The position numbers and the translations under genes are program-made. Below are positions 6,649 through 19,857 of a stretch of DNA of 35,948 bases, in pieces. The notes under the pieces were generated by a model. It was not told the DNA's origin, did no database searches, and saw only the letters and a program-made list of their open reading frames with translations. The stretch covers positions 1 through 35,948 of the IMG/VR virus record IMGVR_UViG_3300029588_000018; one strand, written 5' to 3'. The DNA comes from a virus. How positions within the stretch are numbered: the first letter of the stretch is position 1; every line of letters starts with the position of its first letter.

Positions 6649-7620
6649 ATGGAAAAAATACAGATTTTAGAATTGTTTGGAGGTATAGGTTCTCCAAGAT
6701 GTGCATTGAGGAACATAGGAGTTGATGTAAAAGCAATTGACTATGTAGAGATAGATGAAAAAGCAGTTCGGTCTTACAACGCTATGTTTGAGAGTGAGCT
6801 GCCATATAAAATTCAATCTGTAGTAGGTTGGAATTTAAAACCAGACATTTTGATACATGGAAGTCCATGCCAAGATTTCTCAATCGCAGGTAAACAAAAA
6901 GGAGCGGATGAAGGATCTGAAACTCGTAGTTCATTGATGTGGGAAACTATACATATTATTCAACAGATGGGAGTATGGAAGCCTAGATATGTAATTTGGG
7001 AAAATGTGAAAAACGTATTGTCAAAGCACATGATTCATAACTTCAATCGTTATTTGAAAGAAATGGAAAAAATGGGATATACAAATTCATTTGAAATATT
7101 AAATGCAAGAGAATTTGGATTACCGCAAAACAGAAATAGAGTGTTTACAGTATCGGTTTTAGGAAATGAATATTTTGAATTTGATGATTTAATCAGAACA
7201 AAAGAAAAGAATATCAACGATTTTCTAGAAAAAACATTTGAAGATAAATACATAGTTAGTCAAAAAAGTATGTTAAAAAAAATTGAATCTAAAGATAGCA
7301 ACTTTAAAGTGAAAGTGATTAAAGATTATTGCGATACGATAACGTGCAAACAAGTACGAAGCCCAAACGCAGGTGTAATTAGATTAGATGATGGAAGATA
7401 CAGATATTTGACGGAACGTGAATGTTGGAGACTTCAAGGATATACGGATGATGACTTCGATAATGCAGCAAGAGTAAATCCTGGGAAAGAGGGGTGCATG
7501 AACAGTGCATTGTACAAGCAAGCTGGTAATTCAATTCCTGTACCAATATTCGAAAGTATATTCAGAAAAATAATACTGAATCAAACAGATTCAAGTAACA
7601 AGGAAAACAGATTGTTTTAA
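6649..7620 (+). CDS. DNA (cytosine-5)-methyltransferase
   Basis: Motifs appear in canonical order: ELFGGIGS (I), GSPCQDFSIAGK (IV), WENVKN (VI), QNRNRVF (VIII), GNSIPV (X). Confidence 0.92.
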   Translation: MEKIQILELFGGIGSPRCALRNIGVDVKAIDYVEIDEKAVRSYNAMFESELPYKIQSVVGWNLKPDILIHGSPCQDFSIAGKQKGADEGSETRSSLMWETIHIIQQMGVWKPRYVIWENVKNVLSKHMIHNFNRYLKEMEKMGYTNSFEILNAREFGLPQNRNRVFTVSVLGNEYFEFDDLIRTKEKNINDFLEKTFEDKYIVSQKSMLKKIESKDSNFKVKVIKDYCDTITCKQVRSPNAGVIRLDDGRYRYLTERECWRLQGYTDDDFDNAARVNPGKEGCMNSALYKQAGNSIPVPIFESIFRKIILNQTDSSNKENRLF

Positions 7621-8522: not shown

Positions 8523-9025
8523 TGAAAACAAAGGAAGAATACTTATTAGCGTTAGATCGAATTGATAATGCGTATAATAATTTTGATAGATCTATTAGTG
8601 CAGTAGGAATGTTTATCCAAGATTTCAATTTACTTCTCGGATTAGTAAATGAGCATTTTGAAGATAAACAAGAAACAAATTTCGAACATTATTTTGAATA
8701 CTTGTCAAAACTAAACATGGGTGATTTTGCTCTAATTGATGGAAGAGTTACGCAGTGCTTGGGCACAGGTTGTAGTGAATGTGACTTTAATGGTGATTGT
8801 ATCGAAGGAAAATTTAAATGGTTAAAGCAGCCATATGAAAAGCCAAAATATAAATTAACTAAATTTGAGTTTGATTTAATTCAAACATACCGTGATTGTC
8901 ATGAAAGTTGTAAAATTTCAGAGTTTAAGCAATTAATAGAGTTAAAAGATAAAGGATATTTCAAATGTATTGATCACGATACAAAGATTCAGGATGTTTT
9001 AAAAAATTGTGAGGTTATTCAATGA
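8513..9025 (+). CDS. hypothetical Cys-rich protein
   Basis: 170 aa with the cluster CLGTGCSECDFNGDC and CHESC. The C-terminus LKNCEVIQ is shared with the next ORF. Confidence 0.5.
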   Translation: MDLMKTKEEYLLALDRIDNAYNNFDRSISAVGMFIQDFNLLLGLVNEHFEDKQETNFEHYFEYLSKLNMGDFALIDGRVTQCLGTGCSECDFNGDCIEGKFKWLKQPYEKPKYKLTKFEFDLIQTYRDCHESCKISEFKQLIELKDKGYFKCIDHDTKIQDVLKNCEVIQ

Positions 9026-9252
9026 TACGACAAGCAGGATTGATGCTTCCTAGAAAAGAATACAAGGAGCCTTTATACAGGTTAAGACAAAATGAATACT
9101 GTATATTGCTGATGTTTGAAGGAGAACCTGGCAATAAGTCGATTAGAAGGTATGCAGCTTTATCGGACCTGAAGAAACAAGGATTTTTAAAAAATGTTCC
9201 TGTTGATATAGCTATCAATGAAATATTAAGAAATTGTGAGGTAATCGAATAA
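9022..9252 (+). CDS. hypothetical small protein
   Basis: 76 aa, ATGA overlap with the upstream gene. C-terminus is LRNCEVIE. Confidence 0.45.
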   Translation: MIRQAGLMLPRKEYKEPLYRLRQNEYCILLMFEGEPGNKSIRRYAALSDLKKQGFLKNVPVDIAINEILRNCEVIE

Positions 9253-9485
9253 TGCGTAAAGCTAGATTATTATATTTAGTTGATAAATACGAAAATGAAT
9301 TGATTAGCAGTACTGGTAAGCACAAAGAAGATTACATCGGTCAAGTTGGTAATGTTACGCACAAACAAAACATATGTGTGCTTGTTGGCACAACTAGATA
9401 TTTGTACGACATCGAATTTAATGATGGTGCTAGGTTTTGTGTTGATAGAGAACAAATTGAGTTTGTAAAGGAGAATAGTCGATGA
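9252..9485 (+). CDS. hypothetical small protein
   Basis: 77 aa, TAATG overlap with the upstream gene. Confidence 0.45.
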   Translation: MRKARLLYLVDKYENELISSTGKHKEDYIGQVGNVTHKQNICVLVGTTRYLYDIEFNDGARFCVDREQIEFVKENSR

Positions 9486-9778
9486 GCGGTGGACATTATA
9501 ATTATATGTATTGTCGAATTGAGGATGAATATGTTGATAGAATGTATGATTCTCAATTAAATGAAATGATGAAAGATTTGTGTAAGTTGTTACACGATTT
9601 AGAGTGGTGGAAGTCATGCGATTATAGTGAGGACACTTATCGTAGAACAGTTACTGAATTTAAAAAGAAGTGGTTTAAACAAACTAAGATTGATGTACAA
9701 AAGCAAATCGAATCAAAGTTTGAGCAAACAAAAGATGAGCTGCTAAAAGAGTTTGAGTATTTAAAGGGTGATGAATAA
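9482..9778 (+). CDS. hypothetical small protein
   Basis: 98 aa, ATGA overlap with the upstream gene. Confidence 0.5.
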   Translation: MSGGHYNYMYCRIEDEYVDRMYDSQLNEMMKDLCKLLHDLEWWKSCDYSEDTYRRTVTEFKKKWFKQTKIDVQKQIESKFEQTKDELLKEFEYLKGDE

Positions 9779-10050
9779 TGAGCGCAACAGAATATGATAT
9801 TCACGATGAATTAATTCAAAATGAGTGTATTAGATTACATACTCACTTTAAGGATAGAATCTTACAAGAAAAAGATTTCTTTGAATTAAATAATGCAGTA
9901 TTAAGAATCACTGAATACATCGTCAAACTTGAAAGAGAAAATTGTGGATTAAAAGAATATAAGAAACACCAGGAAAGAGCAAACGAAAGAAGATATCGTA
10001 GTGGGGAAGAGTCTTGGCATAGAGGGTCAGTTGTCGCAAAGAAGAAGTAG
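9778..10050 (+). CDS. hypothetical small protein
   Basis: 90 aa, TAATG overlap with the upstream gene. Confidence 0.45.
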   Translation: MSATEYDIHDELIQNECIRLHTHFKDRILQEKDFFELNNAVLRITEYIVKLERENCGLKEYKKHQERANERRYRSGEESWHRGSVVAKKK

Positions 10051-10059
10051 GTGGACAAA

Positions 10060-10488
10060 ATGAACAAATTAAAAGTAAATCAAATGTTGAATGATTTGAA
10101 GTCGGCAAACTATTGCTGCCATCGAATTATTGAATTGAACGAGGAACTTGAGGTTCTGAATCATAAAATGTTAGGACTAAGCCATAATCCAATTAGGTTG
10201 ACAAAGGAGCAGGAGAAATCCAGTGCTCCTATGCCGACCTTTCATGGTTCTTATACAAGTCCTTTAGGGATGATGGAAGAAGAAACTTTAAAAGTGGAAG
10301 AAATAAATTATTATCGAAGACGTTTAAATGAATGCAGAGCAATCGAGCTTTTATCTTTGCGTGATCAGAATATATTATTTGATCTATACTTCTGGAATAT
10401 GAATACATATGATGTAGCCGATAAATATGGATATTCTAGAAAAGGGTTATGGAAACATATAAGAAATGAGATACACAGTTTAGTGTAA
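10060..10488 (+). CDS. ArpU-family / sigma-70 region-4-like late transcriptional regulator
   Basis: About 142 aa and the last gene of the early operon. The C-terminal LSLRDQNILFDLYFWNMNTYDVADKYGYSRKGLWKHIRNEI looks like a sigma region-4 HTH. ATG 10060 follows AGGTGG, and the ORF-track GTG at 10051 is an alternative start. Confidence 0.55.
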   Translation: MNKLKVNQMLNDLKSANYCCHRIIELNEELEVLNHKMLGLSHNPIRLTKEQEKSSAPMPTFHGSYTSPLGMMEEETLKVEEINYYRRRLNECRAIELLSLRDQNILFDLYFWNMNTYDVADKYGYSRKGLWKHIRNEIHSLV

Positions 10489-10489
10489 A

Positions 10490-10560
10490 AAAGTTAACCC
10501 ATGCAAAGTTAAAATAATAACTTTAAAAAGTTGACATATTAATTTTTTATGAGATAATAT
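10490..10560 (+). promoter_or_regulatory. strong sigma-A promoter with overlapping operator-like repeats
   Basis: TTGACA at 10531-10536 with GATAAT/TAATAT at 10553-10560. AAAGTTRA occurs three times (10490, 10505, 10527). The inverted repeats AAAGTTA(10505-10511)/TAACTTT(10518-10524) and AACTTT(10519-10524)/AAAGTT(10527-10532) overlap the -35 box. Confidence 0.55.
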
Positions 10561-10595
10561 CTATGGACATTGAGAAATGATAGGAGGACTGCTTT

Positions 10596-10949
10596 ATGCT
10601 TACAGCGTTTGGGAAGGAAGTCAGAAAAATTCGTTTAGATCGAGGAGAACTATTAAAAACAATGGCGGATAGTTTAGGTGTGAAATCATCGTATTTATCT
10701 GCGATTGAGCATGGAAAAAAAGCAATTCCAAAATCTTTTATTAGTTCATTAACTTCTTTATACAGTCTTTCACAGAATGAGATAGAAAATCTGGAAAAAG
10801 CAGCGGATTTATCTAAACAGAACGTGAATATAAATCTGATTGGGAAAGATGCTGATTTAGCGGGCTTAGCCAATGCTTTTGCTCGAAAGTTTGATTCATT
10901 AACAGAGAATCAAATCAAAGCTATTGAAAAAGTATTAAAGGAGGATTAG
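10596..10949 (+). CDS. XRE-family helix-turn-helix transcriptional regulator
   Basis: FGKEVRKIRLDRGELLKTMADSLGVKSSYLSAIEHGKKAIP is a canonical XRE/Cro-CI HTH. RBS is TAGGAGGA. Confidence 0.85.
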   Translation: MLTAFGKEVRKIRLDRGELLKTMADSLGVKSSYLSAIEHGKKAIPKSFISSLTSLYSLSQNEIENLEKAADLSKQNVNINLIGKDADLAGLANAFARKFDSLTENQIKAIEKVLKED

Positions 10950-11474
10950 TTGCTTATGAGTACAATGTGCCAGGCGGATGGTTTGTCAAGAAATGAGATT
11001 CGATTAATTGCTAAAAGACTTAGAAAAATTTTCAATATTAAGGGATATTGTTTTCCGATAGTTAAGTTTCTTGATGTTGTGTTGCCAACAATTGATGAAG
11101 AATTTTCTCTGAGTATTGTTGAGCCAGATGAAATCACACCTGGACATTACGCTATAACATATCCTGATACTCATGAGATGGTAGTGCGGTCAGACGTTTA
11201 CGAAAAAGCAATTAATGGAGACGGGAGATCTAGATTCACGTTAGCGCATGAATTGTTTCATTACCTTTTTCATACGGCGAATCACATTTGTTTTGCAAGA
11301 GCAAACGAAGAAATTCCGTTCTATATAAACCCGGAATGGCAAGCAAATACATTTGCAGCTGAGCTTTTAGTTCCTATGGATTTAGTAAAAAATATGAGTG
11401 CAAATGATATCGTGAAAAATTGTAAAGTATCTTGGCAATGTGCAAAGATACAAGTTGAAAATTTTAAAAAATAG
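10950..11474 (+). CDS. ImmA/IrrE-family (COG2856, DUF955) zinc metallopeptidase
   Basis: HEXXH motif in FTLAHELFHYLFH, with a downstream E in EWQANTFAAELLVP. It is directly coupled to the XRE gene. The start is either TTG 10950 or the in-frame ATG 10956. Confidence 0.85.
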   Translation: MLMSTMCQADGLSRNEIRLIAKRLRKIFNIKGYCFPIVKFLDVVLPTIDEEFSLSIVEPDEITPGHYAITYPDTHEMVVRSDVYEKAINGDGRSRFTLAHELFHYLFHTANHICFARANEEIPFYINPEWQANTFAAELLVPMDLVKNMSANDIVKNCKVSWQCAKIQVENFKK

Positions 11475-11512
11475 ACTATATTGAATGTTCAGCTTTTTTT
11501 GAACATTGAATA

Positions 11513-11543
11513 TAAAAAAAGAATCAAGCTGCAACTTGATTCT
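11513..11543 (-). terminator. rho-independent terminator oriented for the minus strand
   Basis: Perfect 9-bp stem AGAATCAAG/CTTGATTCT (11520-11543). On the + strand it is preceded by A7, which is a U7 tail on the minus strand. There is no U-tract on the + side. Confidence 0.45.
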
Positions 11544-11617
11544 AAAATCTTGAGATGAGCACACAAAATGCGGCTAAACTCTTCAATAGATCAATTGAAT
11601 TGTATCATTTTGCGACG

Positions 11618-11641
11618 CTCCTTTCAAGATTGTGAAAGGAG
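11618..11641 (+). promoter_or_regulatory. hairpin sequestering the RBS of the 44-aa ORF
   Basis: Perfect 9-bp stem CTCCTTTCA/TGAAAGGAG with a 6-nt loop. The 3' arm contains most of the AAGGAGG RBS (11636-11642) of the ORF starting at 11651. Confidence 0.4.
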
Positions 11642-11650
11642 GAATGTAAT

Positions 11651-11785
11651 ATGAAGCAACAAAAAGTTATTTTTTGTACTCACTTTACACGTGATGGCGT
11701 AACGTATTACGCAAAAGATTACGGTAAGAAAGCTTTTAGATTTTATGTTGACCCGAAATCAAACAAGATTAACTATACAATCTAA
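11651..11785 (+). CDS. hypothetical 44-aa protein (not in the ORF track)
   Basis: MKQQKVIFCTHFTRDGVTYYAKDYGKKAFRFYVDPKSNKINYTI. A strong RBS lies 8 nt upstream. The peptide is not hydrophobic. Confidence 0.4.
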   Translation: MKQQKVIFCTHFTRDGVTYYAKDYGKKAFRFYVDPKSNKINYTI

Positions 11786-11904
11786 TTAGAATAATATTAT
11801 ATATAAAGAATAAGTCCATATATATAGCCGGTAAATGGGCTTTTATTATATTGGTGCACACTGTGTACTTGAATAAGTGGTAAACTAATATCATAAGAAA
11901 TTAT

Positions 11905-11930
11905 GTCAAGACAGAGGTCTTGGCTTTTTT
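11905..11930 (+). terminator. rho-independent terminator or attenuator immediately upstream of the DUF4417-like gene
   Basis: GTCAAGAC/GTCTTGGC stem (one G-U pair) with an AGAG loop, followed by T6. The RBS of the next gene starts about 10 nt later. Confidence 0.55.
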
Positions 11931-11951
11931 ATGCAAGAAAGGAGGTGTTCT

Positions 11952-12590
11952 ATGCCAGGAAGAGAACTAACAATCAAAAAATACAATCTAGATTTATATG
12001 ATCCATATGAAGCAGACGGTCCATTTGAAATGCCAGTAATTAAAAAGACACTTCATATTCCTAATGAGTTAATTGGATTCAATGAAGCAATTTCTTCAAA
12101 GAATTATCAATCTGGAATTCATATGTTTATTGATGATTATCAGTTTGAGCGCATTTGGAACACTCCTGAACGATATGTGAATGTTTTAAAACAGTATGAC
12201 TGTGTTCTTACACCAGACTTTTCTCTTTACATGGATATGCCTAGAGCTATGAAAGTATGGAACATATATAGAAGCAGACTTATTGGGCAATATCTTCAGA
12301 GTCAAGGAATATGTGTTATTCCAACAGTTTCATGGGCCGAAAGAGAAACATACACATTCTGTTTTGATGGTATAGAACCAGGAGGAGTTGTAGCAATCTC
12401 AACTATTGGATGTATCAAGGATGAATATGCAAGATCAATTTGGGAAGATGGTGTAGATTACATGATTGATAAGCTTAAACCCACTGCAATTCTAATTTAT
12501 GGCCAATCTATTGAACATGATTTCAAAGGCACAAAAGTTATTTATTATAAAAATAAAGTAATAGAGAGGGCAAGAAAACATGGGCGGTAG
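11952..12590 (+). CDS. DUF4417-like protein of unknown function
   Basis: GIHMFIDDYQFERIWNTPERYVNVLKQYDCVLTPDFSLYMDMPRAMKVWNIYRSRLIGQYLQSQGICVIPTVSW matches my memory of the DUF4417 family. ATG 11952 follows AAAGGAGGTG. The ORF-track start at 11931 lies just past the terminator U-tract and is unlikely. Confidence 0.75.
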   Translation: MPGRELTIKKYNLDLYDPYEADGPFEMPVIKKTLHIPNELIGFNEAISSKNYQSGIHMFIDDYQFERIWNTPERYVNVLKQYDCVLTPDFSLYMDMPRAMKVWNIYRSRLIGQYLQSQGICVIPTVSWAERETYTFCFDGIEPGGVVAISTIGCIKDEYARSIWEDGVDYMIDKLKPTAILIYGQSIEHDFKGTKVIYYKNKVIERARKHGR

Positions 12591-12978
12591 AGGAGCAAGC
12601 AGTGGTGTCAGTGACAGTGGAAAACCTTATGGGAGTGAATACAATACGGTTTATCATAGCGGTAATATTAAATTTGTGAAGCAAGCCAATGCTAGTAATG
12701 CAAAAGCTCCGATGGAAACGATGACCAGAGGGCGAGTATATGCCACAGTAAATGATAAAGATGAAATTTCATCAATTTCTTATTATGACAATTCAAATAA
12801 ACGTACAAAACAGATTGATTTAACACATGATCATCAAAATATGAAGCCACATACTCATCATGGTTATTATCATTCTGAACGTGACGGGAAAAAAGGTGCC
12901 ACAAACTTGACTGCAGAGGAAAGGAAAATGGTTGACCGTGTAAAACGGTTATGGTTAAATAAAAATAAGAAAAGGTAG
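12580..12978 (+). CDS. hypothetical protein with MGGRG N-terminus and His-rich segment
   Basis: 132 aa, and its start overlaps the DUF4417-like gene by 11 nt. Sequence landmarks are MGGRGASSG..., THDHQNMKPHTHHGYYH, and the C-terminal ERKMVDRVKRLW. Confidence 0.65.
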   Translation: MGGRGASSGVSDSGKPYGSEYNTVYHSGNIKFVKQANASNAKAPMETMTRGRVYATVNDKDEISSISYYDNSNKRTKQIDLTHDHQNMKPHTHHGYYHSERDGKKGATNLTAEERKMVDRVKRLWLNKNKKR

Positions 12979-13108
12979 TCGTATAGGGGTGATTACACTT
13001 TGATGCATGCATATCACAAAACGATATGCACTGAGGAAACCTCCGTTCGAATCGGAGCGCCTTTTCGATTTGTTAAAAAATATCAGTTTAAATTTTAAAC
13101 GCTATCTA

Positions 13109-13139
13109 AGCATCTTGTTAATTCAAGGTGCTTTTTTTA
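13109..13139 (+). terminator. rho-independent terminator
   Basis: AGCATCTTG/CAAGGTGCT stem (one G-U pair) with a 6-nt loop, followed by T7. Confidence 0.7.
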
Positions 13140-13164
13140 TACATGAATAAGGAGGAAATATTAT

Positions 13165-13506
13165 ATGGGTGGAAGAGGCCAATATGTAAATCGGGGGGGG
13201 ACAGTTGGTTTAACTGTTACCACAGGAGATGGAACTGTATTTGAGTATAGGCAAAAAGGGAAGAAAGTATTTTCTTTTTCCGGTGCATCATTTGCTGATA
13301 GTGGAAGTAGGGAAATTCCTAGGACCTTATCCGATATAGCTTCTAGGGCAAAATCTATGGGTTATAAAGTACAAAAGCTTACAAGCCGAGATTTAGCTAA
13401 TAAAGATTCAGAACAACGTCGTCGAAAAAGACAAATAGCAAAAGAAGTGGATCGATTGTGGGTAAGAGGAGCTGGCTCACCAAGAAAAGGATGGAAAGGG
13501 CATTAA
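13165..13506 (+). CDS. hypothetical protein, divergent paralogue of the 12580..12978 product
   Basis: 113 aa. It shares the N-terminal MGGRG and the C-terminal basic block with VDRLW. AAGGAGG lies 9 nt upstream. Confidence 0.6.
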   Translation: MGGRGQYVNRGGTVGLTVTTGDGTVFEYRQKGKKVFSFSGASFADSGSREIPRTLSDIASRAKSMGYKVQKLTSRDLANKDSEQRRRKRQIAKEVDRLWVRGAGSPRKGWKGH

Positions 13507-13519
13507 GACAGATATTTAA

Positions 13520-14008
13520 TTTCAAACCGGAACACCAGCCCCGAAAGGAATCCCGGACCTTTGGAGCCAGATATATTTGATTGACCAGGGAGAAAGATTA
13601 GGTCGAACGCTAACTCAGTTTCGAGAAAGGTATCTAATTCCAGAAAGAAGAAACGGGATGATCGTATACGATTGGAAGCCAAGACCAGACGCAGAGGAAA
13701 AAATATACAAGAAAATAGGTGACGTATGCATGAGTCTGGATCAGGCAGACTGCGCCAAACTTCCACCGGTTCAGTACTTAAAAAAATCAATCGAACTACC
13801 TCAAAAAGTGATGACAGAATACCACGCTTTCAAACGTGAGAAGGTTCTGGAACTAGATAACAACGAATCATTGCTAGCAGCCAACGCTGGAGTGCTATGC
13901 GGTCAGCTTCTACAGATGACATCAGGAGAAATCTATAAACGTGATCAGCTAGGAAACAAGCTCGAAGAAGTAACAACCCTTCATGCAGCTAAACTTGAGG
14001 CACAATAG
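13520..14008 (+). pseudogene. internal fragment of a phage SNF2-family helicase gene
   Basis: The open frame reads TGTPAPKGIPDLWSQIYLIDQGERLGRTLTQFRERY...LLAANAGVLCGQLLQMTSGEIY, which matches helicase motif III through the inter-lobe region of phage SNF2 helicases. There is no N-terminal ATPase motif I/II and no C-terminal lobe. The frame opens right after a stop at 13517-13519. Confidence 0.7.
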
Positions 14009-14329
14009 ACGAGGACATGCTGGATGCACTAGAACACAAGAACATAACACAAAAAGCTAAAGAGTTCCCACTGTGTACCACTTTAAAGTGGTATATTAGT
14101 ACTTGTAAAAGAGGACCGATAGAAAAGGGCCCCCTTTTCTTTTACCCGGAGCGTCCTCCTTTATAAAAAACGAGTGCTTATAATCAATGTCAACAGCAGC
14201 TACGACAAATCACGGAATTAATCTTATTTTTCTTTTCAGCGCTCCGGGTAATCATAGACAACAAAGAAGCAGACACAGCTTCTTTTTTAATACAACAGAG
14301 GTGAACACACATGAACATTACAGACATAA

Positions 14330-14566
14330 GAACATCCAACCATGAAACCAATTCCACTGATTGCAAGACAGACCAAGCCACGCAGCCGAACTGGAGAAAA
14401 CGTATTGGACCTATTCGGAGGTTCAGGCTCCACGCTTATGGCTTGCGAACAGCTAGGACGGAGGTGCTTCATGATGGAGTATGATCCACACTATGCCGAT
14501 GTAATTATCAAGCGCTGGGAAGATTACACCGGAGAACAGGCGGAGCTGATATCAGATGCCCGCTAA
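14330..14566 (+). pseudogene. C-terminal fragment of an N4/N6 DNA methyltransferase gene
   Basis: The frame reads EHPTMKPIPLIARQ...VLDLFGGSGSTLMACEQLGRRCFMMEYDPHYADVIIKRWEDYTG (HPTxKP and the AdoMet motif FGGSGST). It opens directly after a stop at 14327-14329, and the catalytic DPPY part is missing. Confidence 0.7.
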
Positions 14567-15059
14567 GGGATTAGCTGGACGTACAAAAAGCGAAGCGGCC
14601 AGACAGCGCAAAGACCCAATGCAAAACCTGAAGCCGTTCACGAAAGAGAACGCTGCAGAGATGGGACGCAAAGGCGGAGCCGCAAGCCAGAAAGTCCAGA
14701 AAAAGAAAAAGAAGCTGAAACAATGCCTGGCCGCAATCCTAGAGTTGGAGCCAAGCGAAAGAAATAAAGAGAAGCTGATCGACATGGGATTAGAAGATGA
14801 TGAGCTCAGCAATCAAATGCTTTTAGCCGCAACCATGTTCAACAAAGCCACACGCGGAGACGTAAGGGCTGCAGAATTCATTCGAGACCTTACAGGACAG
14901 CAACCAGTCACAAGTCTAGACAGAGCCCGAACGAAGCTGATGAACGCACAAGCCGAACAGATCAAGAGACAAGGAGACCCTTCTAAAGAGATTACGAAAC
15001 TGGATCTTTTATTAAAAGCTATGGACACAGTAGCCGGAGACAACAGTGGAACTGACTGA
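14556..15059 (+). CDS. terS: terminase small subunit
   Basis: 167-aa basic protein immediately upstream of, and overlapping, the large terminase gene. The N-terminal basic/HTH-like region reads NLKPFTKENAAEMGRKGGAASQK. Confidence 0.6.
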   Translation: MPAKGLAGRTKSEAARQRKDPMQNLKPFTKENAAEMGRKGGAASQKVQKKKKKLKQCLAAILELEPSERNKEKLIDMGLEDDELSNQMLLAATMFNKATRGDVRAAEFIRDLTGQQPVTSLDRARTKLMNAQAEQIKRQGDPSKEITKLDLLLKAMDTVAGDNSGTD

Positions 15060-16275
15060 GAAACAGAAAGAGTTCTGGAATCATAAACCAAGCCGCTGGA
15101 ACATAAAAGAAGGGGCTACACGTAGCGGAAAGACATGGCTGGATTACTACATCATCCCGAAACGTATTCGAGCTATAGAGGGCCTTCCAGGCCACGTGTT
15201 CCTCATAGGAAACACAAAGTCAACACTTGAAAGAAACGTTCTAGAACCCATGCGAGAATTGTATGGCCCAGAACTGGTTGGAAGAGTAAGACCGGATAAC
15301 ACGGTAAAACTTTTCGGTCGTATGTGCTACGCAATAGGCGCAGACAAAGAAAGCCAGGTTACAAAGATACAAGGGGCCTCAGTAGCATATTGCTACGGAG
15401 ACGAAGTCGTAACCTGGAACAAAAAAGTATTTGATATGCTAAAGTCCCGTCTAGATAAACCGTATAGCTGCTTTGATGGGACGTGCAACCCAGACAACAA
15501 GAACCATTGGTTTTTAAAGTTTCTAGAATCAGGAGCTGACATCTTCCGACAGAAATACACGATTGAAGACAACCCGTTTCTGCCGCAGGAATTCGTGGAA
15601 AACTTGAAACTCGAATATCGAGGGACAGTCCTATACAACAGATACATACTGGGAGAATGGTGCAATGCGGAAGGGCTACTCTTTCCACAGTTTGCAGACA
15701 ATCCAGACGAGTGGGAAGTCAAAGAAGAACTCCCACTTTTTAACATGATCAACATAGGCCTGGACATAGGTGGAACACGTTCACATAGTAGCCTGATCGT
15801 AACGGGAATCACGGCAGACCTTTCTGAGATTGTAACCTTTGCAGAACGTAAAGTCGTACACGCTAAAGGAACTATAGATGCCGAAAGACTTTGCACAGAG
15901 ACAGTCGACCTGATCAGAGCTTTATGGATTCAAGGATTTGTGGTATCAAGTGTTTTTGTAGATAACGCAGAACAAGTCATTTTGAACAGTATACGAGTAG
16001 CCGTACAAAGGGCAGGCTTTCCAACCAATGTGATGGATTGCCGCAAGATAGACGGAAAGACAAGGATTCTGACATATAACATGCTGTTGAACCGACACAA
16101 GATGAAGTTCCAGGCAGTACCTATGGTGGTTGAAAGTTTGAGCACAGCTTTATACGATACAAAATCGAAGGAAGATAAGATTCTGGATGACTTTACAACC
16201 GACGTCGATACATTCGACGCCCACTTTTATAGTTGGTCGACATATATGGACCTGATCACAGGAAGGAGTACTTAA
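15046..16275 (+). CDS. terL: terminase large subunit (PBSX/SPP1-like)
   Basis: Walker A-like EGATRSGKTW, Walker B-like YCYGDEV, and a C-terminal RNaseH-like nuclease region (IGLDIGG...FVDNAE). GTG start. Confidence 0.9.
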   Translation: MELTEKQKEFWNHKPSRWNIKEGATRSGKTWLDYYIIPKRIRAIEGLPGHVFLIGNTKSTLERNVLEPMRELYGPELVGRVRPDNTVKLFGRMCYAIGADKESQVTKIQGASVAYCYGDEVVTWNKKVFDMLKSRLDKPYSCFDGTCNPDNKNHWFLKFLESGADIFRQKYTIEDNPFLPQEFVENLKLEYRGTVLYNRYILGEWCNAEGLLFPQFADNPDEWEVKEELPLFNMINIGLDIGGTRSHSSLIVTGITADLSEIVTFAERKVVHAKGTIDAERLCTETVDLIRALWIQGFVVSSVFVDNAEQVILNSIRVAVQRAGFPTNVMDCRKIDGKTRILTYNMLLNRHKMKFQAVPMVVESLSTALYDTKSKEDKILDDFTTDVDTFDAHFYSWSTYMDLITGRST

Positions 16276-17832
16276 ATGAAAGTTTTATTCACAATACTAA
16301 AGGACTTAGGATATCCTGTGAGCCAGGAAGTCCAAGACTACTACAACAAAATTCAATTCTGGAACGATTGGTGGAAGGGCTACGTTCAAGATTTTCATAA
16401 ATACGAGATCAAGAACGAAAGCGGAAACTCAAGAGAAGTCAAAAGAAAACAGATGCGCATGGCCAAGAAGGTCTGCGAAGACTGGGCCGATTTACTTCTA
16501 AACGATAAGACTAGAATTCTTGTAGAGTGTGATGACCACGGAACGAGCATCACACAAGAATTTTTGACTGGAGACAAAGAAGACCAGAACGGTGGAGTTT
16601 TAGGAAACAGCAAGTTCTGGAAGCTAGGAAACAAGGCGGTCGAGAGAGAATTCGCACAAGGGACCGTGTGCTTCTATCTGCAGCTTGTAAATCCAACAGT
16701 AAACAAAGGACAGCTAAGTGCCCAGAGCGTACAAATCAAAGCTATCAAGGACGCGCAGAAAATAGTGCCATTGACCTATGACGAGGAAGATATTTCAGAA
16801 ATTGCATTAGCTAGCGAGTACACACAAAACGGGGAGCGTTTCATGTACATCCAGGTCTTCAAGCAAGAGCAAGAAGGCTACCAAATCTACAACCATTACT
16901 TCAAGATCAACAACGTGGCAGGAGACGCCGTAGGCTATGAAAGAGTATCAGCACCACATGGCGAAGCAATCAGCTATAAATTGCCTTGCAAACCGTTTGT
17001 TATTTTGAAGCCGAACATTGAAAACAACATAGCAGACGTACCATTAGGGATGTCGATCTACGCAAACGCAATCGACATGCTAGAAAGCTGCGACTTGGCA
17101 TACGACAATCTATTCATGGATACTTTGCTAGGAAAGAAAAAGGTTTTCATGGATCAGGCGTTATTCAGCATGAAGCCAACAGCCTACGCGATAAACGATA
17201 AAGGTGAACGAGTACCAGTAAGGCAAGAACCAGACGTTGGTGCAACTTTGGAAAAATCTCTATACGTAAGTACGGGAACACAAGTAAGCCCAGACAAGCC
17301 TCGACTTTTTGAGGAATACAACCCCAGCCTTAGAGTTGATGAAAACAAGGAGAATGTTCAATTCAATCTAAATCTTTTATCAAGTAAATGCGGACTTGGC
17401 CAAAACAGATACCAGTTCAGCATCCAGAACATGACCACAGCAACGCAGGTTCGTGCAAGCAATAAAGAGCTAACAGAAAGCGTCTGGAAGCAACGTATCG
17501 CAATCCAGGACGCCCTTACAGAGCTAACGAGATCGATTATCATTCTAGGCAAAGAGAAGTGCCACATATCCGGGCTTGATCCAGACGTACGCATCACAAT
17601 TCAATTTGACGACACTATGTTCTCAGACGAGGAAGCGGAACGTCTAAGAATGCTTCAGGAAATCTCGGCCGGCATCCTACAGAAATGGGAATATCGCGTC
17701 CGATACTACGGAGAAGACGAACAGACCGCACGCGAGATGACCGGAGAAACACAAAACCCGGCGGACAAAATTCAAAGTATGTTCTTCCAGCAAGATGAAA
17801 CACAAGAAGAGGAGCCAGAGGGTGAAGCCTAA
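16276..17832 (+). CDS. portal protein (SPP1 gp6-like)
   Basis: 518 aa, directly after terL, with an acidic C-terminus. Its size and position, followed by a MuF gene, fit an SPP1-type head module. Confidence 0.85.
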   Translation: MKVLFTILKDLGYPVSQEVQDYYNKIQFWNDWWKGYVQDFHKYEIKNESGNSREVKRKQMRMAKKVCEDWADLLLNDKTRILVECDDHGTSITQEFLTGDKEDQNGGVLGNSKFWKLGNKAVEREFAQGTVCFYLQLVNPTVNKGQLSAQSVQIKAIKDAQKIVPLTYDEEDISEIALASEYTQNGERFMYIQVFKQEQEGYQIYNHYFKINNVAGDAVGYERVSAPHGEAISYKLPCKPFVILKPNIENNIADVPLGMSIYANAIDMLESCDLAYDNLFMDTLLGKKKVFMDQALFSMKPTAYAINDKGERVPVRQEPDVGATLEKSLYVSTGTQVSPDKPRLFEEYNPSLRVDENKENVQFNLNLLSSKCGLGQNRYQFSIQNMTTATQVRASNKELTESVWKQRIAIQDALTELTRSIIILGKEKCHISGLDPDVRITIQFDDTMFSDEEAERLRMLQEISAGILQKWEYRVRYYGEDEQTAREMTGETQNPADKIQSMFFQQDETQEEEPEGEA

Positions 17833-19427
17833 TGCTAGAACCAAACTACCTACAGAACGTAGGTGACGACCTAGAAAAGCTGTATCAGGAACTGGCCACA
17901 GAAATACTGGTGGACATAGCGGAGCGGATCAAGATGAATCAGGACGCTATGACAAGCACCACGGAGTATTTAAACAACAAGCTAAAGCAGCTAGGACTCC
18001 AGCAAGACTGGATTAATAAAAGACTAGCTGAGATACTACACACTTCCGAAGAAGAAGTCGACCGGATCATGCAACAGAGCGCTTATAAAAGTATCCGTGA
18101 TACCTTCGATAGACTAGAGGCTGGAGGATACGACACAAGCGGCTTAGAATTTTCGAATCAGATCAAAAAAGGAACATCAGCACTGTGGGGAGACATCCAG
18201 AACCTTACAAGGACCACAGCTCAACTGGCTAGCGACACTTTTATGAGATACTATGACATGGCTTATCTTCAGGTATCAAGCGGAGCTTACTCACTAGATC
18301 AAGCGACCGCAAACACAATAGATAAGCTATGCAAAGAAGGCCTAACAAAAGTATCCTACCCAAGCGGTGCTCAACGATCAATCGAGGCGGCCGTTCGATT
18401 GGCAGTACGAACCGCAGTAAACCAGAACGCCCTGGCTTGCGAGAAATCGGTCATTGATGAGCTAGATATAAATCTAGTACAGACAAGTGCCCACATGGGA
18501 GCCAGACCAAGCCACGCAGCCTGGCAAGGAAAAGTATTCTGGGTAAACTATCCGGAAGGAAATTACGAGAACTTTTATGAGGCCACAGGATACGGAACAG
18601 GTGCAGGACTTGGCGGGTGGAACTGTAGGCATTCATTTACCGCATACTTTCCAGGAATAAGTGAGGATTACAACAAGCCTGTAAATCCTAAAGAAAATGA
18701 CAGAATATACCAGATGGAGCAAAAGCAAAGGTCTTACGAAAGAAACATGAGAAAGTGGGACAGAGAGCGACGTGTGAAAGCCGCAGCAGGGCTAGACACG
18801 ACAAAAGAGGACTACTGGTATAAATACAACAAGATGAGACTGAAAGAGCTTGTGGACGCTTCTAACGGGTATCTGAAGCGAGATTACTCAGCCGAGAAGA
18901 TAGGCGGAACAAAGGGCAGACCTTACAAGCCTGTAAGAATACCGAAGAAACGAGTTACTACAAAGGCCAATGCACAAGTAAGCGATAAAGAAACGAATAC
19001 AGACATACCAAAATACGAAGTTCTGTGTAATATAGACTCTTCTAAATATAAGGCACCAGAAGGCTCTAGTTCAAAAGTAATTTTGATGGATGAAAGGAAA
19101 AAGCACATAAAAGAAAGTCACCCTGAAGCGGTGGATGCTATCGTAAAAAATTTACCTAGTATTCTTACTGATCCAGACGCTGTGTACATTGAAAATGGAA
19201 AAGAAAACACAAGATGGGTAGTCAAAAAACTGGATGACCACAATGCAAAAATAACATTGAAACTATCAACAGGGGACAACGAAAAATTTCATTCAATTAT
19301 TACTGGACAATTTATGAGACAAAAACAAATAGAAAAAGCTGAAAAAAAGGGCCGTATAACAAAGGTTTACTTTAAGGAAAATCAAGAGTATACTGTAAGT
19401 GAAGAAAAGCCTAAGGTGGAGGAATGA
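17832..19427 (+). CDS. MuF / SPP1 gp7-like head morphogenesis protein with a C-terminal toxin-like extension
   Basis: Core motifs are GARPSHAAWQGKVF and GGWNCRHS. A basic linker follows, then a C-terminal module of about 140 aa (VILMDERKKHIKESHPEAVDAIVKNL...). TAATG overlap with the portal gene. Confidence 0.85.
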   Translation: MLEPNYLQNVGDDLEKLYQELATEILVDIAERIKMNQDAMTSTTEYLNNKLKQLGLQQDWINKRLAEILHTSEEEVDRIMQQSAYKSIRDTFDRLEAGGYDTSGLEFSNQIKKGTSALWGDIQNLTRTTAQLASDTFMRYYDMAYLQVSSGAYSLDQATANTIDKLCKEGLTKVSYPSGAQRSIEAAVRLAVRTAVNQNALACEKSVIDELDINLVQTSAHMGARPSHAAWQGKVFWVNYPEGNYENFYEATGYGTGAGLGGWNCRHSFTAYFPGISEDYNKPVNPKENDRIYQMEQKQRSYERNMRKWDRERRVKAAAGLDTTKEDYWYKYNKMRLKELVDASNGYLKRDYSAEKIGGTKGRPYKPVRIPKKRVTTKANAQVSDKETNTDIPKYEVLCNIDSSKYKAPEGSSSKVILMDERKKHIKESHPEAVDAIVKNLPSILTDPDAVYIENGKENTRWVVKKLDDHNAKITLKLSTGDNEKFHSIITGQFMRQKQIEKAEKKGRITKVYFKENQEYTVSEEKPKVEE

Positions 19428-19490
19428 TGCGTCCACACGCCGCAGTGGCCAAAAGGGACCCCGGGTAAGCATCACCGGGTGGGCTTATCT

Positions 19491-19517
19491 ACCGTGCTAG
19501 AAATAGCGCGGTTTTTT
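19491..19517 (+). terminator. rho-independent terminator (copy 1 of a duplicated element)
   Basis: ACCGTGC/GCGCGGT stem (one G-U pair) with an 8-nt loop, followed by T6. Confidence 0.55.
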
Positions 19518-19536
19518 AGTAGATAGGAGGCAGAAC

Positions 19537-19857
19537 ATGTCGGAAGACTTCAGAACGATATACAAAATTCTATCAACTCTGCAGAAATCAATGGACTATG
19601 AGGTAGTAGACATTCGAAGACTTTCAGCGGATAACCTAGACATCACAGAGCCAAAGAGAAAAGCACTTCTAGGCATGCTACTGAAAAATAGATACGTTGA
19701 GGGATTCCAGGTGATTCAATACATAGGAGACCAAACACCAAACATTGAAGGGCTAGAGGGTATCAGGATAACCCTTAAGGGACTAGAATACCTAGAAGAA
19801 AACAGCTTGATGCAGAAAGCCGCAAGACTTGCAAAAGGAATTGCGGAAGTACTATAG
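19537..19857 (+). CDS. YjcQ-like winged-helix protein
   Basis: 106 aa. ITLKGLEYLEENSLMQKAARLAKG and the overall length resemble the YjcQ phage-associated family. GGAGG RBS. Confidence 0.65.
   Translation: MSEDFRTIYKILSTLQKSMDYEVVDIRRLSADNLDITEPKRKALLGMLLKNRYVEGFQVIQYIGDQTPNIEGLEGIRITLKGLEYLEENSLMQKAARLAKGIAEVL

Follow-up and report, generated by a model that had tools for sequence, protein, structure and literature searches.

A predicted damage-gated miniprotein cassette and a DUF4417 module with a candidate MGGRG targeting leader lie side by side in a mosaic gut siphophage

The region between the ArpU-like late regulator gene and the terminase genes of a viral DNA stretch from IMG/VR (record IMGVR_UViG_3300029588_000018, positions 1 to 35,948; the window, 35,948 nucleotides (nt) in all) is composed of three juxtaposed units. 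Unit A (10461-11876) is a cassette with an XRE-family repressor, an M78 peptidase, a predicted antisense small RNA (sRNA), and a miniprotein of 44 amino acids (aa). Unit B (11905-13506) joins a DUF4417 gene to two genes whose products begin with an MGGRG leader, and unit C (13527-14555) is, by its content, a recombination scar. The genes have been identified, the boundaries of the units placed, and their layouts found conserved; A and B are independent of each other. Set in the mosaic genome of a temperate siphophage of gut Bacillota, these units and the mechanisms proposed for them form our best joint explanation of the region, one that we regard as fairly probable.

A preliminary description had taken positions 10490-13519 for one independently transcribed accessory island encoding a single undescribed defence, exclusion, or counter-defence system. 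It sensed uncharacterised biology and an accessory slot correctly, and merged two unrelated modules and a recombination scar.

Independence of the modules behind the late regulator

The left side of the region is framed by two features:

10051-10488, plus strand: ArpU-like late regulator, which bounds the region on the left (transcriptional regulator PHROG 36, E = 8.8e-7)
10461-11876: limits of the XRE-M78-sRNA-miniprotein cassette, from blastn against cassette-less relatives

Among relatives, that is, closely related gut-metagenome contigs retrieved through exact-protein look-ups and delimited by blastn, ArpU-like equivalents of 134 or 142 aa stand at the same position, and the contents of the slot that follows vary. 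The XRE-M78-44-aa trio fills it in L004, L006, L011, and L097, a 280-aa open reading frame (ORF) without Pfam match in L007-L009, and a SocA/Panacea antitoxin with a partner ORF in L096 (4956-6068) and L098 (3442-4360); it is empty in L005, L010, and L012. Where the cassette is missing, blastn homology ends at 10445-10460 and restarts at 11877. Judged by these contents, the slot directly after the ArpU-like gene is an accessory hot spot, as the preliminary description had supposed. No near-identical DNA was found in deposited phages.

The listed genes (XRE, M78, the 44-aa ORF, DUF4417, and two MGGRG genes) were all confirmed by gene calls, Pfam, and PHROG. The gap of about 3 kb said to separate the regulator from the packaging genes is real, but it extends over about 4.1 kb, to TerS at 14556. 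That packaging genes usually come directly after such a regulator does not hold even for the cassette-less relatives, where DUF4417 and MGGRG113 are present as backbone genes. The claim that the stretch carries its own promoters and terminators survives only in part: site counts are at the level of shuffled sequence (19 promoter-like sites in the window versus 16.7 +/- 4.1, and 6 terminator-like sites versus 3.8 +/- 1.9), but the specific sites named below are conserved in relatives.

One system spanning the whole stretch would be consistent with the order XRE, M78, 44-aa ORF, DUF4417, MGGRG132, MGGRG113, which recurs in L011, L097, and ~16 IMG/VR contigs, and with the lack of a named counterpart. 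PADLOC matched only the regulator pair; the 44-aa ORF, DUF4417, and the MGGRG proteins drew no match, nor did CBASS or another defence system appear, and in the literature we found no function assigned to DUF4417 and no mention of an MGGRG leader. However, the contigs with the full order are relatives 94-99% identical to the window. Outside this lineage the blocks are independent: the cassette occurs in only 2 of 80 MGGRG132 loci, and DUF4417 in only 1 of the 72 genome loci with the cassette. Relatives differ by the clean presence, absence, or replacement of the cassette alone, and the DUF4417 and MGGRG genes, once counted as island cargo, are a widely conserved module that tracks terminase, portal, and MuF genes in phages of Firmicutes and Actinobacteria. 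The preliminary description had itself named a lack of co-occurrence elsewhere as evidence against its proposal, and the full gene combination was not seen beyond the immediate lineage of the phage. Co-occurrence analysis has thus already largely refuted the one-island view, which we now hold to be highly improbable.

Unit B: a DUF4417 module and a leader common to unrelated proteins

11905-11924, plus strand: backbone intrinsic terminator before the DUF4417 ribosome-binding site, in sequence common to cassette-less relatives
11952-12590 (alternative start 11931), plus strand: stand-alone DUF4417 protein, 212 aa (Pfam DUF4417 PF14386, E = 2e-76)
12580-12978, plus strand: MGGRG132 (family F0), 132 aa, with leader MGGRGASSG and a beta-rich domain with the His cluster PHTHHGYxHxExD (PHROG 9479, 3e-56)
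13108-13133, plus strand: intrinsic terminator in the MGGRG132-MGGRG113 spacer; a promoter-like site comes next (13136-13164)
13165-13506, plus strand: MGGRG113 (family F1), 113 aa, with an F0-type leader, an unrelated body, and the invariant C-terminus DRLWVRGAGSPRKGWKGH

To judge from their neighbours, DUF4417 and the MGGRG genes are phage backbone linked to packaging and head genes, not to the cassette. DUF4417 adjoins MGGRG132 in 78 of 80 IMG/VR loci, all chosen via MGGRG132. It lies upstream in 54 of them, mostly with overlapping stop and start codons, and ~158 nt downstream in 24, where the order is TerL, portal, a 148-aa ORF, MGGRG130, DUF4417, and minor capsid protein 2/MuF, some with a terminal Ntox50 toxin domain. 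MGGRG132 has 1,065 homologues, and tblastn located it in 30 deposited phages, including Streptococcus A25, Str01, phiNJ2, phiST1, and Javan prophages, Dorea DO134P1, and Roseburia Jekyll. In the deposited phages that were inspected or for which both positions were reported, it stands beside DUF4417 and near terminase genes; the pair precedes the terminase in A25 and in the Dorea and Roseburia phages. In left-arm relatives, 41 nt separate MGGRG113 from the TerS downstream (Terminase_2), which differs from that of the window, and a distant MGGRG113 relative of 117 aa lies between DUF4417 and the F0 gene, upstream of the terminase, in another lineage. Given that DUF4417 and MGGRG genes are embedded in packaging and head modules elsewhere, the former statement that the stretch contains nothing needed for virion production cannot be asserted for them.

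The end of DUF4417 overlaps the start of MGGRG132, and the coupling to a His-rich MGGRG protein is thereby borne out. The view of MGGRG113 as a paralogue of MGGRG132 had to be abandoned, as BLASTP and hhalign align only the first 13 residues. F0 and F1 are alike only in the leader, and we therefore scanned all fetched loci for ORFs beginning M-G-G-R-G. DUF4417-containing loci yielded 168 such ORFs of at least 80 aa, every one on the DUF4417 strand and within 1.5 kb, 48% of them starting no more than 100 nt from the edge of the DUF4417 gene. The 0.9 Mb of loci without a DUF4417 match held only two, both in loci whose truncation prevents a judgement. Stripped of their first 12 residues, the ORFs fall into about 20 families mutually unrelated at BLASTP E 1e-4, two to four of which stand in tandem in 49 loci. 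The leader consensus is MGGRG[AGS][SA][SG]G, and its codons differ between copies, so that conservation acts at the protein level. Within F0, the invariant residues are G2, R4, G5, S8, and G9 in the leader and Y17, Y54, Y68, H85, H91, H93, and H98 in the body. The AlphaFold2 (AF2) model of F0 has residues 1-8 disordered and a beta-rich body with one C-terminal helix.

Some bodies behind the leader carry recognisable toxin domains. Gp2 of Gordonia phage JSwag joins it to an ADP-ribosyltransferase exoenzyme domain (ADPrib_exo_Tox, E = 4e-21), and a protein of locus L131 to a papain-fold glutamine deamidase toxin (Gln_amidase, E = 1.5e-12). F0 shows weak matches to Ntox24 (PF15529) in 52 of 87 members (best E = 1.2e-5), an all-beta domain with conserved Y, H, and H residues that is among the MuF-linked toxins (Zhang 2012, PMC3482391). 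The DUF4417-leader pairing extends to actinophages, being present in SWU1, JSwag, Baehexic, and Douge. In mycobacteriophage SWU1 (L256:1073-2077), the MGGRG ORF starts at 1073, overlaps the DUF4417 stop codon, and is in frame with ORF2, annotated from 1298. Baehexic gp3, annotated as a 'VIP2-like toxin' (L262:1304-2314), has MGGRGG three codons past its annotated start and comes directly after DUF4417, as does Douge gp128, which starts GTG-GGRGG. The deposited start codons of SWU1 ORF2 and Baehexic gp3 look wrong.

The partner of these leader proteins is constant. The DUF4417 protein of the window scores 256 bits against a cut-off of 28.9 and covers profile positions 1-183 of 183. Most of its 3,466 homologues have an N-terminal ParB domain, which the window copy lacks; a survey of phage ParB folds has recorded the fusion without explaining it, and DUF4417 is there among the commonest fusion partners of the ParB-CTPase fold (bioRxiv 10.1101/2025.10.10.680097). 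H57, D61, D62, D89, K101, R107, R109, and E130 are invariant and enzyme-like, and the AF2 model (pLDDT 92) is an alpha/beta protein. Among 509 deposited phages with DUF4417, 385 are mycobacteriophages, and in the L5-like ones sampled it is gene 1 or 2, near the genome end. In the window, the strong terminator at 11905-11924 ends 15 nt ahead of the DUF4417 Shine-Dalgarno (SD) sequence, which leaves no room for a promoter; expression may depend on read-through or on antitermination linked to the ArpU-like regulator.

We propose that MGGRGxxSG would be a recognition or targeting tag on polymorphic small effector- or toxin-like proteins. DUF4417, often fused to ParB, would be the constant factor that reads, processes, or loads them, possibly onto DNA being packaged, and the leader proteins would be deployed with the packaged DNA. 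This role for DUF4417 is suggested by its constancy against varying cargo, its enzyme-like invariant residues, and its usual ParB fusion. In its full form the proposal is that MGGRGxxSG is an unrecognised targeting leader by which DUF4417 loads effectors with DNA into the capsids of Bacillota and Actinobacteria siphophages, sequenced L5-like mycobacteriophages and Gordonia phages in the hundreds among them, for delivery to the next host, while the cassette of unit A is a new damage-gated small-protein effector module; at its boldest, a TGT-like reaction would couple the N-terminal glycine, exposed after removal of Met, to DNA. We put this full form forward tentatively, as one that could well be wrong.

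There are precedents for such a tag. The internal proteins of T4 and its injected ADP-ribosyltransferase Alt carry a common capsid targeting sequence and are polymorphic between related phages. The MGGRG leader would likewise be the sole common feature of unrelated small proteins encoded in head regions, with an ADP-ribosyltransferase among the cargo. It differs in being glycine rich, in its occurrence in siphophages of Firmicutes and Actinobacteria, and in its constant DUF4417 partner; what is shown for it is synteny with head and packaging genes. Phage ADP-ribosyltransferases encoded beside head genes have been argued to be head packaged (Iyer et al., PMC9503650). MuF polymorphic toxins (Jamet 2017, PMC5576092; Zhang 2012, PMC3482391) also place variable toxin domains in the packaging/head module, and the MGGRG/DUF4417 cluster adjoins genes for MuF or minor capsid protein 2, some of which carry toxin domains. 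In contrast to these, whose toxin domains extend MuF at its C-terminus, MGGRG proteins are free-standing behind a leader of ~10 residues, and Pfam detected no MuF or Phage_min_cap2 domain in them. A conserved N-terminal module joined to about 20 unrelated C-terminal families also recalls polymorphic toxin systems in general (Zhang 2012, PMC3482391). TERi of Listeria, a small prophage protein acting on terminase (bioRxiv 10.1101/2025.02.27.640495), has a different locus and architecture and is a conceptual neighbour only. Polymorphic effectors delivered by phages are a known theme, and within it unit B points to a new trafficking leader and its partner enzyme.

Several observations count against this proposal. 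Most loci were gathered by their homology to F0 or DUF4417, so that the association statistic describes a non-independent sample. Not every DUF4417 phage has a clean leader gene next to it: Calm gp117, directly after DUF4417, starts with the variant MGRGRH, pneumococcal MM1 has an internal GGGRGA only, and Lactococcus proPhi6 has no leader gene. MGGRG132 itself scores 14.6 bits for Ntox24, below the cut-off of 24. Close relatives have lost MGGRG132 (exactly 12604-12912 is missing by blastn, a 309-nt in-frame deletion) or MGGRG113 individually, and neither is therefore essential. Finally, the TGT fold match on which the boldest step leans is weak (E ~0.003-0.01, TM ~0.5) and has no profile support.

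That fold match also bears on a second reading, in which DUF4417 and MGGRG132 would be an enzyme and its small metal-binding subunit acting on DNA at packaging, either in modification or anti-restriction, in the slot taken by a ParB-methyltransferase in other phages, or in helping the terminase as HNH proteins do in cos phages, with MGGRG as the subunit interface. The nearest folds of DUF4417 are TGT and DpdA-like base-exchange enzymes: the best non-self match of the model was TGT in the PDB (E = 0.009, probability 0.98, TMq 0.51), where other TIM-barrel proteins score similarly, and a phage queuine tRNA-ribosyltransferase (DpdA-like) in BFVD (E = 0.003, TMq 0.54), both weak. Moreover, in the donor lineage of the packaging genes, the N6/N4 methyltransferase that stands directly upstream of TerS, in a place comparable with that of DUF4417, carries the ParB domain to which most DUF4417 proteins are fused. 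In the L5-like actinophages sampled, the first gene past the genome end is DUF4417, and F0 has a conserved His/Glu/Asp cluster in a beta-beta-alpha segment. The similarity to TGT and DpdA is nevertheless confined to the fold. A sequence relationship with Tgt was rejected, hhalign against E. coli Tgt giving 0.3% probability; tblastn with E. coli Tgt returned close Tgt homologues only, none seen among DUF4417-containing phage records, and the DUF4417 profile matched only ParB-domain proteins among PDB sequences. No 7-deazaguanine (preQ0) synthesis genes were present among the Pfam-scanned genes of the window; the host may supply them. For F0, the model had no PDB fold match at E < 1, and the profile gave only chance-level matches to PDB sequences. 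Above all, this reading leaves unexplained why the leader stands on about 20 unrelated proteins, ADP-ribosyltransferase and glutamine-deamidase toxins included, with up to four per locus. We consider it unlikely.

The toxin-type domains in the C-terminal parts admit a third reading, with MGGRG proteins as intracellular toxins and DUF4417 as a general antitoxin or immunity factor acting through the leader, in an addiction or abortive-infection module. The stop codon of DUF4417 overlaps the start codon of the next gene, which couples their translation, and relatives that lose MGGRG132 keep DUF4417. Yet the survey of polymorphic toxins ties immunity families to particular toxin domains (PMC3482391), whereas here the partner is constant and the toxin domains vary; the invariant Asp, His, Glu, Arg, and Lys residues of DUF4417 are enzyme-like, it is frequently fused to the DNA-binding ParB domain, and the module is found strictly in the company of packaging and head genes. 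An antitoxin role is accordingly quite improbable.

Should the targeting-leader proposal be true, it would supply a function for DUF4417, with thousands of public homologues, and explain orphan small genes beside terminase, portal, and MuF genes. It would also provide a simple sequence rule to find phage-delivered effectors of Gram-positive phages, ADP-ribosyltransferase and deamidase toxins among them, and possibly a tag for loading foreign proteins into capsids. It would further correct the starts annotated in deposited genomes.

Two further observations concern the MGGRG132 gene and its surroundings. A 131-aa variant (L008:7399-7794, also in L016 and L034) has its first ~50 residues nearly unchanged and a diverged C-terminal half (…IYVTLGKNNEPKSITRYSNNG…PHTHKGYVHDE…), which suggests recombination within the gene, as in polymorphic toxins. 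Positions 12966-13093, mostly spacer after MGGRG132, weakly match the Streptococcus sRNA SpF41 in Rfam (32 bits versus a gathering threshold of 52; E = 0.026), and some of the same stretch shares ~70% identity with the DNA that precedes terS in Streptococcus phage A25.

Unit A: a regulator pair with a miniprotein and a predicted antisense RNA

10505-10524: palindrome AAAGTTA-N6-TAACTTT by the -35 box, candidate XRE operator, from sequence inspection
10531-10558, plus strand: sigma-70 promoter TTGACA-16-TGaGATAAT (11/12 match and extended -10)
10596-10949, plus strand: XRE-family repressor, 117 aa, ImmR/CapH/DdrO-like (Pfam HTH_31/HTH_19/HTH_3; PADLOC capH 3.1e-8)
10950-11474 (likely ATG 10956), plus strand: M78/COG2856 zinc peptidase, 172-174 aa, ImmA/CapP/IrrE-like (Pfam Peptidase_M78 PF06114)
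11592-11514, minus strand: predicted ~78-nt antisense sRNA, with promoter 11627-11599 (TTGAAA-17-TGcTACAAT) and terminator hairpin 11543-11520 plus T-run
11618-11641, plus strand: hairpin pairing the miniprotein SD sequence (CTCCTTTCA/TGAAAGGAG), the SD being the 3' arm
11651-11785, plus strand: basic, beta-rich miniprotein of 44 aa, output gene of the cassette, with a strong SD; conserved family

The cassette opens with a recognisable regulator pair, co-directional and adjacent, repressor first, in the order and sizes of ImmR/ImmA. The XRE family profile matches the structures of DdrO, ClgR, CapH (7t5u), and ICEBs1 ImmR (7t8i). The peptidase (PF06114 2.4e-10, 40.7 bits versus a cut-off of 22; PADLOC capP 1.7e-15) has an HELFH motif, with H100, E101, H104, and E129 invariant in 27 cassettes, and its family profile matches CapP (7t5t, 1.9e-17) and IrrE (1.8e-7). 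It aligns to positions 35-124 of 242 of the capP model and to residues 81-182 of 291 of 7t5t, solely the peptidase region, and therefore lacks the C-terminal GAF domain of CapP. In most cassettes examined, the XRE gene is preceded by a strong TTGACA-type promoter belonging to the cassette, and most carry analogous palindromes at the same place, e.g., TTAACC-N7-GGTTAA. A search of the 27 cassettes for a second XRE operator close to the miniprotein gene gave nothing beyond the level of shuffled controls, and no convincing internal plus-strand promoter was found, which would make the miniprotein most simply the third cistron of the operon, cotranscribed from the XRE promoter.

An exhaustive HMMER search delineated the miniprotein family, with the core YIFxxxFT(R/K)(N/D)GxTYYAKDYGKKAF and lengths of 36-62 aa as retrieved, which become 31-44 aa, with strong SD sequences, once start codons are corrected; across the family the range is 31-60 aa. 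A dN/dS of 0.17 over the 21-codon core indicates purifying selection. The family has no Pfam or PDB relative. A resemblance to the arm-binding domain of lambda Int was discarded, the hidden Markov model (HMM) of the miniprotein having matched nothing outside its own family in the fetched loci.

Its genetic context is well conserved, and the layout of the cassette was met in more than 100 further loci of phages and prophages. On IMG/VR contigs outside the lineage of the window, 43 of 50 miniprotein copies have an M78 gene ending 17-191 nt upstream and an XRE gene before it; the same layout surrounds at least 50 of the 67 assessable copies in bacterial genomes sampled at one per species, where the closest relative of the miniprotein reaches 67% identity over a part of it. 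Most hosts belong to Lachnospiraceae, Oscillospiraceae, Erysipelotrichales, Coprobacillaceae, Clostridium, and Tissierellaceae, and a few lie outside Bacillota. Elsewhere among phages, the usual place of the cassette is after the endolysin gene or beside the integrase gene, a classical position for a moron, i.e., an accessory gene with its own promoter.

The structured leader and opposing terminator that had been noted for the 44-aa ORF are both upheld: the leader folds at -55.4 kcal/mol (z = -5.8), and the terminator lies on the minus strand at 11543-11520. Most of the 27 cassettes are predicted to form a counterpart of the SD-containing hairpin even though the sequence changes. Across divergent cassettes, no part of the peptidase-miniprotein spacer is better conserved than the antisense promoter and terminator. 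This promoter reads TTGCAA or TTGCGA, 17 nt, TGnTATAAT, its -35 box starting 24-30 nt from the miniprotein ATG; ~77 nt downstream, where the peptidase gene ends, comes the intrinsic terminator. Structural support was drawn from per-sequence folds and from counting pairs of the named structure. For the two-hairpin structure of the sRNA, 78% of cells were paired versus 26-47% with the partners slid, 9 pairs change on both sides, and the covariation score was reached by 0 of 500 shuffles. G-U pairs on one strand are A-C mismatches on the other, which favours the minus strand for the sRNA.

In our reading, unit A would be a horizontally mobile, self-regulated switch, all biochemical steps of which we infer. 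The XRE protein would hold the operon low, as in ImmR/ImmA, CapH/CapP, and DdrO/IrrE, until a DNA-damage or infection signal activates the M78 peptidase; cleavage of the repressor would then release a burst of transcription. A constitutive convergent promoter would supply antisense RNA against the peptidase-miniprotein spacer, setting a threshold that is later out-titrated, and the SD hairpin would limit translation, so that miniprotein is made only after a sustained signal. The layered silencing and the Panacea toxin-antitoxin pair in the same slot of sister phages favour a harmful effector, which would act in growth arrest, abortive infection, or exclusion.

Some results sit uneasily with this scheme. 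The ~78-nt antisense RNA is predicted solely from sequence, an Rfam scan of 10400-14700 found no family at the cassette, and RNAalifold on raw MAFFT alignments of the leader and the sRNA found no consensus structure. Cotranscription of the miniprotein from the XRE promoter is deduced only from the missing internal promoter and second operator. The miniprotein itself is basic, aromatic, and hydrophilic, without a hydrophobic stretch, unlike classical type I toxins, and 5 of 48 assessable copies on viral contigs and 17 of 67 in genomes have no detectable M78/XRE partners.

An antirepressor-type regulator is a serious alternative for the miniprotein. The cassette would then be an auxiliary induction switch in which a small antirepressor or DNA-binding regulator couples DNA damage to induction or to the control of a co-resident element, comparable to Tum of coliphage 186 and the Gifsy antirepressors under LexA control. 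In ICEBs1 and many Gram-positive phages, induction is classically sensed by an ImmR/ImmA-type pair, and a basic, beta-rich miniprotein is compatible with binding to nucleic acid or protein; tight silencing would prevent spurious induction. SOS-controlled antirepressor genes are positioned at the prophage end, which the location of the cassette after the lysin gene recalls. Conversely, near-identical phages can do without the cassette, which alternates with the Panacea toxin-antitoxin pair, no second operator was found, and the miniprotein HMM matched neither integrase N-termini nor other regulators in the fetched loci, nor did the PDB yield a relative. An induction switch is thus possible, if on the doubtful side.

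As a harmful effector, the miniprotein would have close analogues in tisB/istR-1 and zor/orz. These SOS-controlled type I toxin-antitoxin loci are gated by LexA and encode membrane-peptide toxins. Unit A would resemble them in its very small ORF with an occluded SD, the predicted opposite-strand sRNA upstream, and the gate formed by a repressor cleavable under stress, but it differs in its hydrophilic, basic product, in an RNA that is predicted, and in an XRE/M78 gate instead of LexA. With ImmR/ImmA of ICEBs1, CapH/CapP, and DdrO/IrrE it shares an XRE repressor followed by a co-directional HExxH peptidase of ~170 aa, in the ImmR/ImmA order and sizes, and its own promoter next to a candidate-operator palindrome. 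CapP is a chain of 291 aa with a C-terminal GAF domain, and CapH/CapP lie on the opposite strand from the operon that they control, whereas the peptidase of unit A has ~170 aa without that domain and the regulated gene is downstream and co-directional, not in a divergent operon. The output likewise departs from these systems, being a miniprotein and a predicted antisense RNA and not integrase/excision, CBASS, or DNA-repair genes. Three-component modules of Xre, COG2856, and a toxin have been predicted as abundant in phages and prophages, with RelE or PIN toxins as third genes (Makarova et al. 2009, PMC2701414); unit A similarly links a mobile Xre-COG2856 pair to a third gene, which here is a novel miniprotein with RNA-level control. 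By gene content, unit A is a variant of the ImmR/ImmA-CapH/CapP theme, and its novelty resides in the miniprotein output and the predicted antisense RNA.

The cassette would thus add a new output and an RNA layer to a widespread family of damage sensors, and it is common in human-gut prophages of Lachnospiraceae, Oscillospiraceae, and Erysipelotrichales. A conserved putative effector of 31-44 residues under three predicted layers of silencing is a compact and directly testable object.

Unit C and other features of the genome

13526-13527: recombination junction between two phage lineages; all left-arm relatives lose homology exactly at 13526
13577-14008, plus strand: remnant of an SNF2-type helicase gene (PHROG 62, positions 863-993 of 1881)
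14342-14566, plus strand: C-terminal remnant, last 74 codons, of a ParB-N6/N4 DNA methyltransferase gene (Pfam N6_N4_Mtase, positions 166-220 of 221)
14556-16275, plus strand: TerS (14556-15059) and PBSX-type TerL (15046-16275), where the foreign packaging module begins (PHROG 2412; TIGR01547, 1.9e-24)

The junction lies 20 nt past the MGGRG113 stop codon, and GC content rises near 13 kb from ~0.33 to 0.43-0.47. The TerS and TerL genes of the window belong to another lineage, in which an intact SNF2 helicase, a 142-aa ORF, and a 434-aa ParB-N6/N4 methyltransferase precede TerS (L093-L095). The helicase has 454 aa at the corresponding place in all three contigs, and the intact ParB_N+MTase stands directly upstream of the same TerS in L093 and L095. 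With terminase genes from a lineage whose upstream genes are intact, 13527-14555 is, on this comparison, a recombination scar that joins the left arm to a foreign packaging module.

Several other observations concern the left arm, the terminase genes of relatives, and the head module. The early region encodes a C-5 cytosine DNA methyltransferase (6649-7620; PF00145, E = 2.4e-56), and the left arm further encodes YqaJ, DUF1351, RecT, an HTH_36 replication protein, and SSB. In L005, L008, L010, L011, and L012 (~8864-11036), the large-terminase gene (Terminase_3) is split into two ORFs; a GIY-YIG homing-endonuclease gene between the terL halves of L008 and L012 suggests an intron or other mobile insertion. 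Within 17832-19857, the window encodes a minor capsid protein 2 of 531 aa (Phage_min_cap2, E = 1.2e-86) whose C-terminal extension weakly matches MuF_C and a PBECR2 nuclease-like domain; the extension varies in length among relatives (474-578 aa for the protein). A YjcQ-family gene (19537-19857) follows, and the pair is arranged like a MuF polymorphic toxin gene with a small gene behind it.

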